From a virus (lineage: Duplodnaviria; Heunggongvirae; Uroviricota; Caudoviricetes): a DNA stretch of 42,471 bases. The stretch spans positions 1-42,471 of the IMG/VR virus record IMGVR_UViG_2513237219_000005. One strand, given 5' to 3'. The notes under the pieces are model-generated. The model saw nothing but the letters and a program-made list of their open reading frames with translations, made no database searches and was not told where the DNA came from. Both the position numbers and the translations under genes were made by a program. Shown piece by piece: positions 22,326 through 42,471 of this stretch; position 1 is the first letter of the stretch, and each line of letters starts with the position of its first letter.

Positions 22326-22946
22326 TTAAGCCAGTCGCAGCATGCACGTCCCGCACGCTCTGGCAATATCGAGATGAGCTACCTCCGCTGGCTGATTCGC
22401 CGCATCAATCATTTCCTGCACGTCCCGGCTTGCACCGTAACGGCGAACCACGCCCACAAACTCTTCCACGTCATGGCCGCGCAGCTTCAGCTTTGGCTGC
22501 CCTTCCTGCGTGAACTTCGGCGCGCCAAATTCATCTGTCGCCTGGCAGATGTGATAAAGCTCGTGCTCTATCAGCGCGCAGAACTCCAGATCGGAACATT
22601 GCGAACAGTAATCGGCGGCGAGCGTGATGATGAAATGCGGCACCCTGCCGAACCATTCATACATCTGCTGCTCCATCCGCGCTTTCTGCCAGCCTCCGGC
22701 ACGCATTGCCACTTCTTCCGCCTGCCCCAGCACGGAACGCCCTTTCTTCTCGAAAGCGTTCGACGCCCAGAGAAAGCACAGATCCGCTTCAAGCAAATGC
22801 TGGTGGTCAGGGTTGTAGAGGTCACCCTCATCGCTCAGGATGTGCTGATTCAGCCACTCGCCAACGTCATTAGCGGGCATAATGCTGATGTACGGCTTCG
22901 GGTCAGGTGGCATCGTAAAATGCGCTGGTGGGTGTGGTCTGTTCAT
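22326..22946 (-). CDS. Putative phage metallopeptidase (HExxH)
   Basis: HELYH motif in IEHELYHICQATDEFGAPKF. Confidence 0.5.
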   Translation of the reverse strand: MNRPHPPAHFTMPPDPKPYISIMPANDVGEWLNQHILSDEGDLYNPDHQHLLEADLCFLWASNAFEKKGRSVLGQAEEVAMRAGGWQKARMEQQMYEWFGRVPHFIITLAADYCSQCSDLEFCALIEHELYHICQATDEFGAPKFTQEGQPKLKLRGHDVEEFVGVVRRYGASRDVQEMIDAANQPAEVAHLDIARACGTCMLRLA

Positions 22947-23788: not shown

Positions 23789-24259
23789 TTATTTCAGGCA
23801 CTGCTCTTTGATGTATTCCTGCAGATAGCCAACCTGCTTCGTCACTGTGACGATTCGCTCTCTGAGGGTGAAATAATCCCGTTCAGCGGAGTCAGTAAGT
23901 CGGGGGCCGGTAACATCGCCCAGGCCGCCGGTGCTGGTCGTTCCGTTCGCGGGACAGTTTGCGTTGAGCTGCAGCCGCTTACGGCCAGCAATGACATCGC
24001 TATGCAGACGCTCAATGGTTTCTTTCGCATCAGCCAGTTCTCCGGTGTATTTGGCATCCAGTGCAGCGACATCACGCTGGCGGGTCTGCATGTCTTTAAT
24101 GGTGGCGGTCGCCAGGAGGAGTTTCTCAGTGGCCTTATCGCGCTGGTCTCTGTAAGTGATGGCGTTGTCGCGGTAGTGGTTCACGAAGAAAGCCAGTGCG
24201 CCGATTAACGCCAGCACCAGCAACTGCAGCCAGTAACGCTTAACCAGTGCGCTAATCAT
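23789..24259 (-). CDS. Rz: i-spanin Rz
   Basis: Strong similarity to lambda Rz as recalled ([11 protein letters not shown]..., [28 protein letters not shown]). Confidence 0.9.
23842..24030 (-). CDS. Rz1: o-spanin Rz1, lipoprotein embedded in Rz in another frame
   Basis: Track ORF 23842..24075; start [20 protein letters not shown] with lipobox, Pro-rich body, lambda-like C-terminus [12 protein letters not shown]. Confidence 0.85.
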
Positions 24260-24705
24260 GACAGGAACAGAGCTCGCTCTGCCTTGCGGCGATTCGTGAG
24301 CCCCGGCATCACCTTTCCGCCTGATTTATTCCAGCGCAGAAATTCATCTGCCGCGCCTTTTATATCGCCAGCATTCAGCTTTTTCAGCAGTGTAGATGTG
24401 GAAAGAGCACGCGACCCAACGTTGTAAGCGAACGACACCAGTGCGTCGAACTGGCCTTGTGTCAGCTTCACCCTGACAACTTTCAGCACGTCATTCTCAT
24501 AACCAACAAGCCCTGTTTTCAGAAGCCTGTCAGCGGTTTGCTGGTCGATAGTCATACCGCGCTTTACTGGCTTTCCGTCAACCGGATGGGTCCAGCCATA
24601 GCCGATGGTCCACGGCGCATCTCCCGTTCCGGGGTCGGGGTAAGCAGTCAGCCGACAACCTTCAAATTTTTTTATCAGAGCAATTCCGTCAGGACTGGTT
24701 TGCAT
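24256..24705 (-). CDS. Endolysin, phage lysozyme (GH24, P22 gp19 / T4 lysozyme type)
   Basis: [17 protein letters not shown]...GYG core and C-terminal [12 protein letters not shown]. Start taken at MQTSPDG; track ORF extends to 24732. Confidence 0.9.
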
Positions 24706-25012
24706 CGTCAACTCCCGCCTTTTTTGCTGCAAGTTTTTTAATCAGATTGCCGATCGAATCGGTGCCGATGTATCCAATAAAGACGCTGGCTATGTAGGCG
24801 AGGTTGCTGCTCAGGCCGATAAAGTCCAGAAGGTCACGAACGAACCAGGCAATCATCGCGCACATCAGCGCATCAATTAGCGTTTTTGTTACCGCGCCGC
24901 CGTTATAGCGACCACGCAGATACGCCATGATAAAAGCCAGCATTGCACCAATACCCTGCTCCTTGGCGGCAAGTAGCGCAGCGATGAAATCTTGTTTGTA
25001 TGGCATTTTCAT
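24689..25012 (-). CDS. S: Holin, lambda S-like class I, with dual-start motif
   Basis: Strong similarity to lambda S as recalled, including the Met1-Lys2-Met3 start; GGAGGTGAG Shine-Dalgarno. Track ORF 24689..25132 adds 40 upstream codons that are not part of the holin. Confidence 0.9.
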
Positions 25013-25194
25013 AGGCCTCACCTCCGATTTTCCGGATGGTGCTGTGTGTGTTTGTAGGGGAAAGGCCGTCAGACTCTGATTGCTACATGGCATCTGAAAA
25101 TGATATCTGCGGCCTGCAATAAAAAAGCCCACGGCGCGGTGGGCAATAGAGGGTAGTGCGTTGAGCTTTTGCTCTTATGGTCCTGGTAGGTATT

Positions 25195-25269
25195 TGGCGG
25201 GACAGGAAGGATTCGAACCTTCGACCAATCGGTTAACAGCCGATCTCACAACCTCTGTGCTTCTGACCC
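25195..25269 (-). tRNA. tRNA-Asn (anticodon GUU)-like gene
   Basis: 75-nt cloverleaf folded by hand: 7-bp acceptor stem with one U-U mismatch, perfect 5-bp anticodon stem with loop CUGUUAA, canonical T-loop TTCGAAT, discriminator G and encoded CCA. A8 instead of U8 and a weak D-stem are atypical. Confidence 0.6.
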
Positions 25270-25275
25270 TGAATG

Positions 25276-25305
25276 CAAAAAGCCCCTGCATTTCTGCAAG
25301 GGCTT
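25276..25305 (-). terminator. Intrinsic terminator (tR'-like) between Q and the lysis genes
   Basis: 9-bp stem with GAAA loop followed by T5 on the minus strand, about 80 nt downstream of the Q stop. Confidence 0.65.
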
Positions 25306-25387
25306 AAATGTGGTTCACACCGCTCCGCGCAAGGCATCTCCGCTGGTGGGTAAGCTCTTTCGCCTTTGACGTCCGAGCATATCTGAA

Positions 25388-26071
25388 TTATGCAGTTTCA
25401 AAACTCGTTTTCAAGTCTTTTTCGCAAGTTTTTGCATTTTCGAAGCCAAATTCATCTTTTAACGTGAAGAAGACAGCAGAATTAAACAACTCAATACACC
25501 AGCGCACGCGGTCAATACATTGCTTTTCGGTCAGAAACGGCGCGTAGTAATATTGCATCCACCGTGCCATGTCATTAATGGTTTTCCTCCAGGTGTAATA
25601 GTCCTTCCCTATCTCATACACGGGATTCCCCGGCTTGAAGGACTTCAGGATGATAGCCTCCATGAATGCAGCTTCCTCTTGATCCCCGGCGTTGCCGATC
25701 AGGTCAGAAAGTGATTTCTTCGGCCAGATGATGGCTTTAGCCTGCTCAAACAACGCATCTCCGGTATAGCCAATTTTACGCAGACCAGACAGTACGGTAG
25801 CGATCCGCTCCTGCTGTTCGCCAGTCCAGCCGGTCAATATCATTGACCACATACCACCGCCACCTGAAAGGTGTTCTATTCCGCTGCCTCCATACATGCC
25901 GCCCCAGTGGTTCAGCAACGAACGAACCCAACGGCTTTGCGATGGTGTCAGTCGGCGGTATTTCCCCAGGTAAGATCTGCGTGGTGCTGCTGCCAGCGTC
26001 ACCCAGGCGTTTTGCGGGTTGGTACGCTCAACAGACGCTTTCTGGTAATTGTTAATATCGGTGCGTGTCAT
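25388..26071 (-). CDS. Late-gene antiterminator Q (putative)
   Basis: Position between nin genes and the terminator/lysis cassette; ATG at 26071 overlaps the RusA stop as ATGA. Family assignment rests mainly on synteny. Confidence 0.65.
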   Translation of the reverse strand: MTRTDINNYQKASVERTNPQNAWVTLAAAPRRSYLGKYRRLTPSQSRWVRSLLNHWGGMYGGSGIEHLSGGGGMWSMILTGWTGEQQERIATVLSGLRKIGYTGDALFEQAKAIIWPKKSLSDLIGNAGDQEEAAFMEAIILKSFKPGNPVYEIGKDYYTWRKTINDMARWMQYYYAPFLTEKQCIDRVRWCIELFNSAVFFTLKDEFGFENAKTCEKDLKTSFETA

Positions 26072-26427
26072 TGTCCGTTCTCCCGAATGATGATCTGGCC
26101 TTTCTCGCCCCATAGCTTTGTAATGCGACAATCCCAGACACTGGAATCATCATCAAACAGGGCATCCATCAGTGCTTTAAGCATGTTGTCGCAGTCTGGT
26201 TTTGACTGGTGCGGCTTGCCGTTGAGCTGTTCACGCTTCTTTTTGCTCCAGCTCGGAGGCATTGGCATAACGAAGGTGATATGCGCGCCGGACTCAGGGA
26301 GATTGATTTTGCGCAGACGTGCTTCATCGCAGAATGCGCGGTAACGCATGACCGCAGGCCGTGTTTTCCATTTGTCGGCGCGGGTCATACGGGGCTTGCC
26401 GATCGGCGTGATGTCGTAAATTTTCAT
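26068..26427 (-). CDS. rusA: Holliday junction resolvase RusA-like
   Basis: Start MKIYDITPIGKPRM chosen because it overlaps the upstream stop as ATGA; acidic motif KPDCDNMLKALMDALFDDDSSV fits the RusA active-site region. Confidence 0.7.
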   Translation of the reverse strand: MKIYDITPIGKPRMTRADKWKTRPAVMRYRAFCDEARLRKINLPESGAHITFVMPMPPSWSKKKREQLNGKPHQSKPDCDNMLKALMDALFDDDSSVWDCRITKLWGEKGQIIIRENGQ

Positions 26428-39743: not shown

Positions 39744-39897
39744 CTCACGCTCACGACGACATCAGGGTTGGCACACTGCGCCTTCCCTGGCTCAAAGAGA
39801 AAAACGGATGGTTGCTGCCGTGGGGTGATGTCGTTACCAACCCACTGAAGGCGCAACGACTGGCTGAAGAACTTAACGAAAAGCAGGTGGCAGCATG
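39740..39897 (+). CDS. Hypothetical small protein
   Basis: 52 codons, hand-translated, coupled to both neighbours by ATGA overlaps. Confidence 0.35.
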
Positions 39898-40800
39898 AAT
39901 TACGGATTTGTAAGTGTTTGCGTTGAGCAATTCAATGAAGCGGTTAAGCTGCCACCCGCACACAATCCAGCATCACGAATTTGGCAGCGCCCGTTCCTTA
40001 AATGGGCTGGCGGCAAATATTCGCTGCTGCCGGAACTGGATCGCCTGATCCCCGCAGGGAAACGCCTTATTGAGCCTTTTGTGGGTGGCGGCTCGGTGTT
40101 CCTTAACTCAGACAAGCACGAACGCTTTCTTCTGGCTGACGTCAACGCTGACCTGATTAACCTGTATCAGATGCTGGCGGTGGTCCCCGACTCGGTGATC
40201 TATGAGGCAATGAAGGCATTCAGGCATCTGAATGATGCCGAAAACTACACGGTAATTCGTGAAGCATTCAACGCGCAGCGGCTGGATGCGGTTGAGCGCG
40301 CAGCAGCGCTCCTTTACCTCAACCGGCACTGCTTCAACGGGCTGATCCGTTATAACCTGGACGGTTTTTTTAACGTCGGCTTTGGGAAATATAAAGCGCC
40401 ATATTTCCCGGAAGAAGAGATCAGGGCATTTAAGCGGAAGGCTCACGCATGCGTATTCATGAATGCAGGCTTCAGGCGCACGATCGCGCTGGCAGGTGAT
40501 GGTGACGTCGTTTACTGCGATCCGCCTTATGAACCGCTGCCCGGCACCGCTGGTTTCACTAACTACGCGGCTGGTGGGTTCTCATGGGATAGCCAGGTAG
40601 AACTTACGGAAAGCTGTGTGGCAGCCCACCAGCGGGGGGCAAAAGTGGTGATCAGCAATTCTACCGCTCCGCGCGTAATTGAACTTTACGAACAGCACGG
40701 CTTCACGCTGCACCGCGTCAGTGCTCGCCGGGCTATATCCAGCAAAGGCAGTACCCGCGAAACAGCGAGTGATGTCGTAGCCACTTTGGGAGTGCAGTGA
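39895..40800 (+). CDS. dam: DNA adenine methyltransferase, Dam family (GATC type)
   Basis: Colinear with E. coli Dam as recalled: FLKWAGGKY, EPFVGGGSVFLN, LYLNRHCFNGLIRYNLDG, DPPY. Confidence 0.9.
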   Translation: MNYGFVSVCVEQFNEAVKLPPAHNPASRIWQRPFLKWAGGKYSLLPELDRLIPAGKRLIEPFVGGGSVFLNSDKHERFLLADVNADLINLYQMLAVVPDSVIYEAMKAFRHLNDAENYTVIREAFNAQRLDAVERAAALLYLNRHCFNGLIRYNLDGFFNVGFGKYKAPYFPEEEIRAFKRKAHACVFMNAGFRRTIALAGDGDVVYCDPPYEPLPGTAGFTNYAAGGFSWDSQVELTESCVAAHQRGAKVVISNSTAPRVIELYEQHGFTLHRVSARRAISSKGSTRETASDVVATLGVQ

Positions 40801-41083: not shown

Positions 41084-41281
41084 ATGGATGATATTTTGGT
41101 AACGTCAGACCTGACCAGTCGCTACAAAATTTCACGCAAAACCCTTTGGTCATGGCAAAGTGCAGACACAATGCCTCGGGGCTTCGTATGCCCGTTCCCA
41201 CCCCCTGACTGGCCCGGCAACCCTAACCGCTGGCGCTCTGAGTCAATCAAAGAGTGGGAGGATAAAAAGAAGATAAATTAA
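41084..41281 (+). CDS. AlpA-like DNA-binding protein (excisionase or regulator)
   Basis: Pattern SRKTLWSW...FPPP...RW...IKEW resembles AlpA-family proteins; start at MDDIL within track ORF 41039..41281; converges on int. Confidence 0.55.
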
Positions 41282-42471
41282 CTGAAGGGCTCTCCGATGA
41301 TCTCTTCAAGATGGCTCTGCCAAACGCGGAGCCAGTGTTTCTGATCATCGATATAGTCATGAAGGTTGTAATGCGCCATAACCCCCACCATCTGATGCCC
41401 GAGCAGCTTTTCAATTACGTGCGGCGGGCAACCTAACTCAGAGAGATTTGTGGCTATCGTCCGCCTCATATCATGAAGCGACCACTCTGCCATACCTGTT
41501 CCATTCCAAATAGAACGGGCGTAATTGGATGCCACAGGTGAATGAACGGGCGAATCTTTGATCCCGCCATCAATTTTACGTTGTGAAGTCACCAGGTGAT
41601 TGGTGTTTATTTTCTTGAGGTGATTTCTGACCAGGTTAACGGCGGCGTCTGAGAGTCCCCTTCTAATATGTACCCGAGTTTTATAACTGCCCGCAGGCAC
41701 GACCCACTCATTATCATCCAATCGAAACCATGATCTCTCACTAAGTCGAATCTCAGCCGTACGGCATCCGGTAAGCATAATAAATTTCACCAGGAAAACG
41801 GACTCTATCGACATATGGCTTTTCAACCACTGATAGATTTTGCGCAGATCGTCATCGTCCATCCTGCGAGTTCTCTTTTTAGGCTTTTGCCCGACATCAG
41901 ATGGCAGTAATCCCTCGAGTGGGTTTGAGGCGATCACACTTCTGTTAACGCAGAACCTAAACGCCCGTTTGCACAGCGAAAGCATGTAATGAGCCATCAC
42001 CCTGCTTTCTATAGAATCGAAGACGTTGATCCAGTGCATTTTCGCTGTGTTATCGACTTTGACATTCTTCATCGGTTCGGCGATATGTTTCTCAAACACC
42101 TGGCGATAGTAATCGACTTTAACTAGCCCGTTAGCGATACAGTGCCTTTCAATCCAGTAATTGAACGCTTCGGCAACGGACATCGCTTCCTGTCGGGTCT
42201 GCTTATCCAGCTTCACCTGCTCTCGCGGATCCAGACCCTCAGTTAACCAGTTTCTGAATTGTTGGCGACGCTCTCTTGCCTGGGTGATACTCATTGCAGG
42301 ATAATCACCAACATTGAGTTTTACCGCTTTACCGGCCCAGCGATACCGATAGAAAAATGATATTTTTCCGGCCTGGCTGATTCTGGCGTTGAGCCCGTGC
42401 GAATCAGAAATAATCTCGATATCATCTCTTTTCTTGCCGAGCGCCTTCCTGAGCTTTGTGTCGGTGATCAT
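41278..42471 (-). CDS. int: Tyrosine integrase, P4-like
   Basis: N-terminus [10 protein letters not shown]...[10 protein letters not shown] is P4-type; C-terminal catalytic region with HDMRRT and LLGH...MAHY (Tyr). Start codon is at 42469-42471. Confidence 0.9.

Follow-up and report, generated by a model that had tools for sequence, protein, structure and literature searches.

Phages 21, Sf6, ST64T, L and SfI have been described as carrying a tRNA-Asn(GUU) gene after the antiterminator gene Q. In the phage-21 type, comprising phages 21, Sf6, ST64T, L, PS3, SfI, BTP1 and HK446, this gene lies directly past the late terminator and ahead of the lysis genes, and it comes first in an optional tRNA array. 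A tRNA-Asn gene at the same locus is carried by HK639 and by temperate phages of Klebsiella and Enterobacter (Chronis, GZ7, ST11-VIM1phi8.1 and ENT1). Most GenBank and RefSeq records of this HK639-type family, which includes E. coli prophages, annotate the tRNA-Asn; HK639's own record leaves it unannotated. Stx phages such as 933W carry ileZ-argN-argO between Q/pR′ and stx, and in these lambdoid phages, too, the late transcript that depends on Q begins with tRNA genes.

We analysed a 42,471-nt stretch of viral DNA (the window; IMG/VR record IMGVR_UViG_2513237219_000005), in which a tRNA-Asn gene occupies the position that it has in the phage-21 type (Table 1). The window tRNA is 92–95% identical to those of HK639 and the Klebsiella and Enterobacter phages, and 92–100% identical to those of the HK639-type family as a whole. 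Copies identical to it are annotated as tRNA-Asn in RefSeq E. coli prophages, and PGAP annotates identical or near-identical copies, one per genome, in 79 of 5426 complete E. coli genomes. The gene and its arrangement are already known, being annotated in close relatives and present in the lambdoid-phage literature for decades. By its sequence, the window copy belongs to the HK639/Klebsiella-phage type of a known class, the predicted first gene of the lambdoid late operon. A sequence-only reading of the window had proposed a phage-borne tRNA-Asn between a tR′-type terminator and the holin gene, a spot where lambdoid phages carry tRNAs, and the neighbouring genes bear this out. As that reading also held, no toxin gene was found between Q and holin among the open reading frames of the window or with Pfam. 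The 933W-type tRNAs come with toxin genes and serve rare codons (AUA, AGA/AGG), whereas the window tRNA reads the common Asn codons and toxin cargo is absent. The window is not phage Omnitron: the best phage match covers 70–76% at 95–97% identity and reaches 100% only over the Q-tRNA-holin stretch.

Table 1. Features of the window that bear on the tRNA-Asn gene.
Feature	Coordinates	Strand	Basis or remark
tRNA-Asn(GUU) gene, 75 nt	25195..25269	−	ARAGORN, Rfam, covariation, annotated identical copies
Q-like late antiterminator gene (longest open reading frame; true start perhaps internal)	25388..26131	−	PHROG 753 'anti-termination protein Q-like', E 1.5e-57
Candidate late promoter (pR′-like): TTGAAA, 16-nt spacer, CATAAT; overlaps the Q stop codon	25387..25414	−	consensus scan, 10/12 matches
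tR′-type intrinsic terminator: 11-bp hairpin 25305..25280, T-run 25279..25275	25275..25305	−	hairpin scan
Second terminator-like hairpin, GCCCAC...GUGGGC + T6; 3′ of the tRNA, 5′ of the holin ribosome-binding site	25121..25144	−	putative, function inferred
Holin gene (lambda S family); opens the protein-coding part of the late operon	24689..25012	−	PF05106, E 8.5e-30
Endolysin (phage lysozyme)	24256..24732	−	PF00959, E 7.8e-48
Rz spanin	23789..24259	−	PF03245, E 1.2e-42
Major capsid gene	15397..16338		PF09950
Integrase gene	41278..42471		about 16 kb from the tRNA

Across the whole window, ARAGORN returned a single tRNA, the tRNA-Asn(GTT). The Rfam model RF00005 matched it on the minus strand at 25198..25269, over model positions 1–71 of 71, with 55.4 bits (E = 2.2e-9, computed over the whole window), the gathering score being 29. 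For comparison, host asnT reaches 72.6 bits and the SfI/phage-21 tRNA-Asn 55.3. A permissive Rfam scan of the surroundings (24950..25450) gave nothing credible except the tRNA. The cloverleaf is the MFE fold of the single sequence, with an energy z-score of −0.59 that is uninformative alone.

The 75-nt minus-strand cloverleaf with a GUU anticodon, a canonical T-loop, an encoded CCA, an acceptor-stem U-U mismatch and A8, as described in the sequence-only reading, is present in every detail. Specifically, the anticodon (25237..25235) lies in the loop CUGUUAA, the T-loop reads UUCGAAU, G18G19 and A14 are in place, and the discriminator G73 is followed by a CCA encoded at 25197..25195. Pairing of the 7-bp acceptor stem (GGGUCAG/CUGUCCC) is incomplete owing to U4·U69, and positions 8 and 21 are A and U, against U8 and A21 in the conserved tRNA core. 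Two further departures, the D-stem mismatch G10·A25 and the replacement of A21 by U21, had been overlooked. A sample of 134 other distinct tRNAs contained 123 with U8; A8 also occurs in the T5 tRNA-Thr(UGU). The identity set of E. coli AsnRS consists of the anticodon G34 U35 U36 and the discriminator G73. All of these elements are present in the window tRNA and constant across all variants, so that host AsnRS is predicted to charge it, possibly with lowered tRNA activity because of the non-canonical core (A8, U21 and U4·U69, plus G10·A25 here).

The four departures of the window copy from a canonical tRNA (U4·U69, A8, U21 and G10·A25), together with an MFE z-score so close to zero, might be taken for signs of a functionless gene, either a decaying pseudogene or a remnant of a host-tRNA attachment site. 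The sequence-only reading had gone some way in this direction by calling the tRNA 'diverged or partly defective', a description that comparison with its relatives does not support. Of the 183 copies collected, 182 have U4·U69 and one has U4·C69, with a Watson-Crick pair in none, and every one of the 19 distinct HK639-type variants has A8; both features are conserved in essentially all copies, in more than 10 enterobacterial genera. Furthermore, U4·U69 is common to two sequence families whose other stems all differ. The phage-21-type tRNA has the same anticodon, loop CUGUUAA, acceptor stem including U4·U69, G73 and CCA as the window tRNA, yet it is only 68–70% identical to it overall. Compensated changes set the two apart in the D, anticodon and T stems alike, and the variable loop is 4 nt long in the phage-21 type, which has U8 and A21, as against 5 nt in the window type with its A8 and U21. 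The sole part never to vary between the two families is the acceptor stem, with the anticodon loop and G73 constant across both.

Stem changes in the alignment are compensatory. Five stem pairs are changed on both sides, paired cells amount to 92.1% in the cloverleaf versus 35–56% when the partners are slid, and the covariation score is 0.291 versus 0.087 in shuffles. A first harvest of 122 IMG/VR and phage copies contained 17 tRNA variants, with 97 of the 122 copies identical, set in 67 distinct upstream and 53 distinct downstream 60-mers; the flanks diverge and the tRNA does not. The conservation of U4·U69 and A8, combined with the compensatory stem changes, indicates selected lineage traits and not decay, and the odd features of the window tRNA are, judged from these comparisons, inherited family traits. 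G10·A25 is confined to the Omnitron-type variant, to which the window copy belongs and which differs from the majority at four positions (A16, A25, which breaks G10:C25, and A27:U43 for U27:A43); with this mismatch the Rfam score goes from 63.9 to 55.4.

A pseudogene was accordingly rejected on score, conservation and covariation, the full-length match of 55.4 bits being clearly above the pseudogene level that the sequence-only reading had considered. The attachment-site remnant (attP/attB) raised in the same reading was also rejected: the tRNA is full length, 59% identical to asnT and some 16 kb from the integrase gene rather than beside it, and a search of the window for the 3′ half of host tRNA-Asn, allowing up to three mismatches, yielded no hit. 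We regard a functionless relic of either kind as extremely improbable.

The genes around the tRNA are those of a lambdoid late operon. The Q-like protein gave no match in Pfam and was identified through PHROGs, and its gene has the position of the annotated Q genes in HK639, GZ7 and ST11-VIM1phi8.1. The scanned region contains one pR′-like site where 1.6 are expected by chance, so that the candidate promoter alone is weak evidence; its position agrees with that of the annotated lambda-like pR′ of HK446. The tRNA +1 sits 10 nt past the terminator stem, and a promoter of the tRNA's own was rejected, since these 10 nt contain no promoter-like site detected by the scan. A hairpin with a T-run ends 7–10 nt before the tRNA +1 in all 71 distinct upstream contexts, with differing stem sequences. 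In HK446, the tRNA-Asn lies 4 nt past the T-run of a hairpin terminator that itself follows the annotated lambda-like pR′.

The arrangement is general in the family. In every annotated relative the tRNA is downstream of Q and upstream of holin, and the layout of Q, tRNA and lysis genes is repeated in HK639, GZ7, SfI, HK446 and an E. coli prophage. The tRNA-Asn is the most widespread tRNA at the late-operon position and is always first in variable arrays (Asn alone, 30; Asn-Arg(UCU), 23; Asn-Thr(UGU), 21; and others). From sequence and gene order, we consider it likely that the late-operon tRNA-Asn gene of the window, one of a known kind, is genuine and expressed. The anatomy of the locus suggests how it would work. 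RNA polymerase would initiate at the late promoter, where the Q gene ends, and without Q would halt at the terminator 10 nt ahead of the tRNA. Q-modified polymerase would pass this terminator and so produce the tRNA along with the lysis and virion mRNAs. On the 5′ side, the tRNA would be cleaved by RNase P, and, as CCA is encoded, trimming would suffice at the 3′ end.

The same anatomy admits two other readings. The first concerns the lysogen. Two terminator-like hairpins bracket the window tRNA, and if some polymerases from a constitutive late promoter leaked past the first and stopped at the second, the lysogen would receive a low level of toxin-insensitive tRNA-Asn, for instance as protection from CDI tRNases whose target is the acceptor end of host tRNA-Asn. 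The acceptor stem never varies between the two tRNA families, and G1-C72 stands where CdiA-CT(EC869) requires U1-A72, although G1-C72 is the commonest first pair among tRNAs generally and for that reason is no specific signature. In many relatives, further tRNAs and not a second terminator come right after tRNA-Asn, and as the basis of the idea is purely positional, we consider a benefit of this kind improbable.

In the second reading, the tRNA fold acts mainly as a site for RNase P and 3′ processing, which frees the late mRNA from the Q-loading leader and the terminator hairpin and sets the 5′ end of the mRNA, with decoding secondary or absent. A processing element would fit the fixed spacing between terminator stem and +1 (7–10 nt in 71/71 contexts), the constant place of the tRNA at the head of the late transcript and the non-canonical tertiary core (A8, U21). 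However, the AsnRS identity elements (loop CUGUUAA and G73) are invariant in both families and would be superfluous in a pure processing signal. To our knowledge, phage lambda is without any tRNA at the late-operon position. In addition, the tRNA-Thr of the HK446 array decodes in vivo (bioRxiv 10.64898/2026.07.10.737580). A role confined to processing is thus very improbable.

If the window tRNA decodes, it could simply enlarge the tRNA-Asn pool and speed the reading of Asn codons, mainly AAC, in abundant late proteins, with no nuclease involved. Judged by its position, the tRNA would share a transcript with the late genes, and the major capsid gene is 6.4% Asn, with 15 AAC and 5 AAT codons. 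In the capsid gene of phage L, whose authors propose supplementation, AAC accounts for 24 of 25 Asn codons, and partner tRNAs in related arrays read AGA, ACA and GGA, codons that are rare in enterobacteria. Asn, however, has a single isoacceptor, encoded by four identical genes in E. coli K-12, which leaves no rare Asn codon to cover. Asn usage is equal in late and early genes of the window (4.39% versus 4.43%; AAT fraction 0.38 versus 0.35) and is therefore no explanation for the gene, so that the codon-usage comparison put forward in the sequence-only reading yields no signal. A K-12 reference of 12 genes gave 3.5–5.0% Asn depending on one large gene, and is too small for a firm host baseline. 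In SfI, the authors saw a bias for ACA but not for Asn; to them the tRNA-Asn was unexplained and its significance unclear. Supply also leaves unexplained why a phage tRNA should be 59–63% identical to the host's and have an invariant odd acceptor stem. We therefore hold supplementation to be possible but rather unlikely.

The role that we prefer, tentatively, is that of a spare tRNA-Asn that would go unrecognised by host-encoded tRNA-cutting nucleases of defence or competition, so that Asn codons stay readable late in infection. Three such nucleases have published determinants in tRNA-Asn or in other tRNAs that they cut. AriB of PARIS cleaves host tRNA-Asn(GUU) at 40|41, and U39A abolishes AriB cleavage of tRNA-Lys (PMC12409363). 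P2 OLD targets tRNAs with paired C28-N-G30 and C40-N-G42 triplets, including tRNA-Asn (PMC12445682). CdiA-CT(EC869) cuts tRNA-Asn at 71|72 and requires U1-A72 and G73, a G1-C72 variant being poorly cut (PMC9071432). The window tRNA differs from host tRNA-Asn at the determinants of all three. Specifically, it has C39 in place of U39, UCG/CGA in place of CGG/CCG at positions 28–30/40–42, which puts the CNG triplets out of register, and G1-C72 in place of U1-A72; its anticodon stem is AUCGG/CCGAU and that of the host GCGGA/UCCGU. Such differences discriminate poorly and count as weak evidence, since a tRNA-Asn of any unrelated lineage would be likely to depart from the host's at these positions.

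Two phage tRNAs with experimental support offer parallels. The T5 tRNA-Asn aids escape of T5 from PARIS and is one of three T5 tRNAs required (PMC12409363). Like the window tRNA, the T5 tRNA-Asn has the anticodon GUU and is without U39-C40 at the AriB site (G39 U40 in T5, C39 C40 in the window), but the two are unrelated sequences with 62% identity. T5 is virulent and expresses about 25 tRNAs from their own promoters, and its anti-PARIS effect is experimental, whereas the window tRNA is known here from its sequence. The tRNA-Thr(UGU) of HK446, which comes immediately after tRNA-Asn in a late-operon array, resists OLD and restores plating of OLD-sensitive phages (bioRxiv 10.64898/2026.07.10.737580). 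It has UCG/CGA at 28–30/40–42, as the window tRNA-Asn does, along with a G27·A43 mismatch, and its anticodon arm is the commonest among the companion Thr tRNAs of these arrays. It differs from the window tRNA in amino-acid specificity, and the window phage is without a Thr partner.

Several observations run contrary to the anti-nuclease role. Three minor phage-21-type variants regain in-register paired CNG triplets (GCAGG/CCUGC). For both AriB and OLD, tRNA-Asn ranks as a secondary target only, and the published screens selected no suppressors other than Lys (AriB) or Thr(UGU) (OLD). Asn is also absent from the listed preferred targets of OLD (bioRxiv 10.64898/2026.07.10.737580). The window phage, according to ARAGORN, has Asn alone, with no Thr or Lys partner. 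Among the early-left open reading frames, Pfam recognised no RecBCD inhibitor of the Gam/Abc2-like kind, a known trigger of OLD, and the phage's own genes thus give no link to OLD.

A bolder version of the anti-nuclease role would cover the whole lambdoid late-operon tRNA-Asn lineage as a dedicated counter-defence tRNA. The invariant, odd acceptor stem with G1-C72 and U4·U69 and the re-registered anticodon stem (C39, no in-register CNG) would confer insensitivity to Toprim tRNases of the OLD/PARIS family and to CDI tRNases acting on the acceptor end. The first Q-dependent place would secure Asn decoding when abortive-infection tRNases fire, and the U·U mismatch, which is never repaired, would be a functional anti-determinant and not a tolerated defect. 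We think this generalisation rather unlikely as it stands, though conceivable.

The finding by itself adds little. Its value is that of a test case: rare-codon arguments fail for tRNA-Asn, and the work of 2025–2026 on tRNA-cutting defence (PARIS, P2 OLD) offers a concrete and cheap test. Should U4·U69, A8/U21 and C39 turn out to act as nuclease anti-determinants, they would explain a feature long noted in temperate enterobacterial phages, and the same oddities would help to predict which prophages escape which defence systems.

ARAGORN calls a tRNA-Asn with anticodon GTT as the sole tRNA in the whole window, and the Rfam tRNA model aligns with it over the full model length, scoring 55.4 bits against a gathering score of 29 (window-wide E = 2.2e-9). 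No Rfam family other than tRNA reaches threshold in the window. The 75-nt minus-strand gene with anticodon GUU described by the sequence-only reading is real and correctly located, and the acceptor-stem U-U mismatch, A8 and encoded CCA can all be read in the sequence. Specifically, in standard tRNA numbering, the acceptor stem is GGGUCAG/CUGUCCC and contains U4.U69; positions 8-9 are A8 and A9; the D stem, GCAC/GUGA, contains G10.A25, and the D loop is A14 G A G18 G19 U U21; position 26 is G26; the anticodon stem is AUCGG/CCGAU, with the anticodon loop C U G34 U35 U36 A A; the variable loop is UGGUC; the T stem is GAAGG/CCUUC, with the T loop UUCGAAU; and the 3' end is G73 followed by CCA. The minimum-free-energy fold of the single sequence is a cloverleaf of an energy ordinary for its base composition (z = -0.59), so that it is the covariance model and the related sequences, and not the energy, that support the tRNA.

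The tRNA is an already known feature, the identical sequence being annotated in other genomes. Copies with 100% identity are annotated as tRNA-Asn in RefSeq E. coli chromosomes, where they are prophage-borne and lie between the gene at the Q position and a 'phage holin, lambda family' gene; identical and near-identical copies together are found in 79 of 5426 complete E. coli genomes, always singly. At the corresponding locus, copies with 92-95% identity are present in HK639, in Enterobacter phages and in several Klebsiella phages, among them Chronis, GZ7 and ST11-VIM1phi8.1, and most of these phage copies are annotated as tRNA-Asn. With one genome taken per bacterial species, the family was found in Serratia, Klebsiella, Enterobacter, Cedecea, Pantoea, Apirhabdus, Atlantibacter, Lelliottia and Citrobacter. 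The record of HK639 itself leaves its tRNA-Asn unannotated, and the GenBank record of HK446 leaves both tRNA-Asn and tRNA-Thr(UGU) unannotated (1201-1356 of L215, the HK446 sequence). The SfI paper placed one or both of its tRNAs likewise in Sf6, ST64T, PS3 and phage 21, reported that Asn shows no codon bias, and left the meaning of the tRNA-Asn open (PMC3636060). Asn and Thr tRNAs are marked in P22-like prophages in the epsilon34 paper (PMC2629481), and according to the phage L paper tRNA genes head the late operon at its 5' end, the authors leaving open their excision from late mRNA (PMC8022706).

The late genes of the window lie on the minus strand, and the layout around the tRNA is the standard lambdoid nin-Q-pR'-tR'-lysis order, with RusA and NinB upstream of the Q-like gene. 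The tRNA starts 10 nt past the stem of the terminator hairpin and the holin gene lies downstream, bearing out the proposed place between a tR'-like terminator and the holin gene; no toxin gene is present at the nin-Q-lysis locus, again as proposed. Two terminators bracket the tRNA, the second of which may stop polymerases leaking past the first in lysogens. The best phage match to the window is Citrobacter phage Omnitron, with only 70-76% covered at 95-97% identity; in the 321 nt surrounding the tRNA, identity reaches 100%. Elsewhere, the invertase gene at the window edge adjoins tail-fibre-region ORFs, which suggests, by analogy with Mu and P1, an invertible tail-fibre (host-range) segment. 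The early-left ORF of odd codon usage (20 AAT vs 5 AAC) resembles an acquired gene of high AT content, which may serve in exclusion or defence.

Features of the window around the tRNA-Asn gene and elsewhere
Feature	Position	Strand	Remarks
Hin/Gin-type serine invertase	1-594	-	Pfam Resolvase + HTH_7
Putative phage metallopeptidase + KilA-N protein	22326-22946	-	just downstream of lysis cassette
Lambda-family holin, lysozyme, Rz	downstream of second hairpin		PF05106, PF00959, PF03245
Second terminator-like hairpin	25121-25144	-	between tRNA and holin ribosome-binding site
tRNA-Asn (ARAGORN)	25195..25269	-	Rfam match 25198..25269
11-bp GC-rich hairpin + T-run	25305..25275	-	upstream of tRNA
Promoter-like site TTGAAA, 16 nt, CATAAT	25414..25387	-	overlaps stop codon of Q-like ORF
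Q-like ORF, 247 codons	25388..26131	- (late strand)	PHROG 753 'anti-termination protein Q-like', E 1.5e-57; no Pfam match
Early-left ORF, 451 codons	36099-37454	+	sub-threshold Pfam fragments only
D12-class Dam-like adenine methyltransferase	39895-40800	+	early-left region

The HK639 type, to which the window tRNA belongs, is only 68-70% identical to the second late-operon type, the phage-21/SfI type, yet their acceptor stems, U4.U69 included, are identical, as are the anticodon loop, G73 and CCA. After an IMG/VR pattern scan with positions 4 and 69 unconstrained, the collected copies numbered 183, in which 4:69 is U.U in 182 and U.C in one; a Watson-Crick or G.U pair occurs in 0 of the 183. 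A divergent copy from the bacterial-genome scan (Candidatus Pantoea deserta; L200, around 1741) pairs U4 with A69 and has C5 facing U68; here the mismatch is shifted, not lost, and the copy may be decaying. A8 is present in 19 of 19 HK639-type variants and likewise in T5 tRNA-Thr(UGU); of 134 distinct tRNAs sampled from elsewhere, 123 have U8. In a covariation alignment of 21 distinct variants of both types, the acceptor stem shows zero variation and five pairs in the D, anticodon and T stems are altered on both sides; paired cells amount to 92.1%, vs 35-56% with slid partners, and the covariation score is 0.291, vs 0.087 in shuffles. The first harvest of the HK639 type gave 17 tRNA variants from 122 copies (97 identical), with far more diverse flanks (67 upstream and 53 downstream distinct 60-mers). 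Since U4.U69 is kept in nearly all collected copies and A8 across the HK639 type, the supposed signs of decay are conserved lineage traits; with covariation in the other stems, the suggestion of a diverged or partly defective tRNA is not supported. The window variant differs from the majority type by A16 in the D loop, by the compensated swap of U27:A43 to A27:U43, and by A25, which disrupts G10:C25, accounts for the fall in score from 63.9 to 55.4 bits, and is the sole candidate defect. Exact copies of this variant turn up again in IMG/VR contigs, in four E. coli genomes and in one Apirhabdus genome.

Upstream of HK639-type tRNAs, a hairpin with T-run ends 7-10 nt before +1 in 71 of 71 distinct contexts, and the stem sequences vary among contexts. 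Most phage-21-type contexts have longer hairpins, missed by a simple hairpin rule, which run into the same T-run, 3-4 nt upstream of +1. A lambda-like pR' is annotated in the HK446 record, and the tRNA starts ~200 nt downstream, 4 nt past the T-run of a long hairpin that we take to be the lambda tR' sequence. A separate tRNA promoter has no room, so the tRNA should be transcribed by Q-modified polymerase reading past the terminator; RNase P and 3' trimming would afterwards free it from the transcript. In 92 loci whose flanks are long enough, Asn comes first in every array of the related phages: Asn alone (30), Asn-Arg(UCU) (23), Asn-Thr(UGU) (21), Asn-Gly(UCC)-Thr (5) and other combinations. 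In HK639 (L001), a tRNA-Gly(UCC)-like sequence, without an ARAGORN call though near-identical copies on other contigs are called, lies directly 3' of tRNA-Asn, and a match to the Rfam STnc100 sRNA (52.6 bits) lies farther downstream (2596-2680, 2938-3143).

The proposed codon-usage explanation is without support: Asn has a single isoacceptor, encoded by four identical host genes, its codons make up 4.39% of late-gene vs 4.43% of early-gene codons, and the AAT fraction is 0.38 late and 0.35 early. The tRNA may still simply boost Asn supply, as Asn is somewhat frequent in the capsid gene and is encoded there mostly by AAC (15 of 20 codons).

A better candidate role, suggested by recent work, is evasion of tRNA-cutting nucleases. 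The PARIS nuclease AriB cleaves between positions 40 and 41, after U36-A-A-U39-C40, its cleavage of tRNA-Lys is lost with U39A, and PARIS is neutralised by T5 Lys, Thr and Asn tRNAs together (PMC12409363). P2 OLD cleaves tRNAs with paired C28-N-G30 and C40-N-G42 triplets and A37, best tRNA-Thr(UGU) and also Asn(GUU), and OLD-resistant phage Thr tRNAs have changed triplets and a shorter stem (PMC12445682). [quoted passage not shown] Host tRNA-Asn has all these determinants (anticodon stem GCGGA/UCCGU, U39, U1-A72), whereas in the window tRNA position 39 is C, the two triplets read UCG and CGA, and the first acceptor pair is G1-C72. Among array partners, tRNA-Thr(UGU) is the commonest; in its stem, GUCGC/GCGAA, G27 is mismatched with A43 and the triplets are again UCG/CGA, and the tRNA-Thr following tRNA-Asn in HK446 has the same anticodon arm. 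This HK446 tRNA-Thr is stable under OLD and restores plating of OLD-sensitive phages, and T5 tRNA-Thr(UGU) gives partial rescue from OLD (bioRxiv 10.64898/2026.07.10.737580). The altered determinants and the resistance of HK446 tRNA-Thr lead us to favour, tentatively, a nuclease-insensitive spare tRNA-Asn. The evidence is permissive, not decisive, because any foreign tRNA-Asn would tend to differ at these positions, for both Toprim nucleases Asn ranks as a secondary target, the window phage has Asn without partner tRNAs, the CNG register is restored in three minor variants, and no OLD trigger is recognisable among the early genes of the window phage. CCA-adding enzymes mark tRNAs for decay with a CCACCA tag when the 5' end reads GG and the acceptor stem is weakened; by this rule, the window tRNA could be deliberately short-lived. 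The role of the late-operon tRNA-Asn class is now approachable by experiment.
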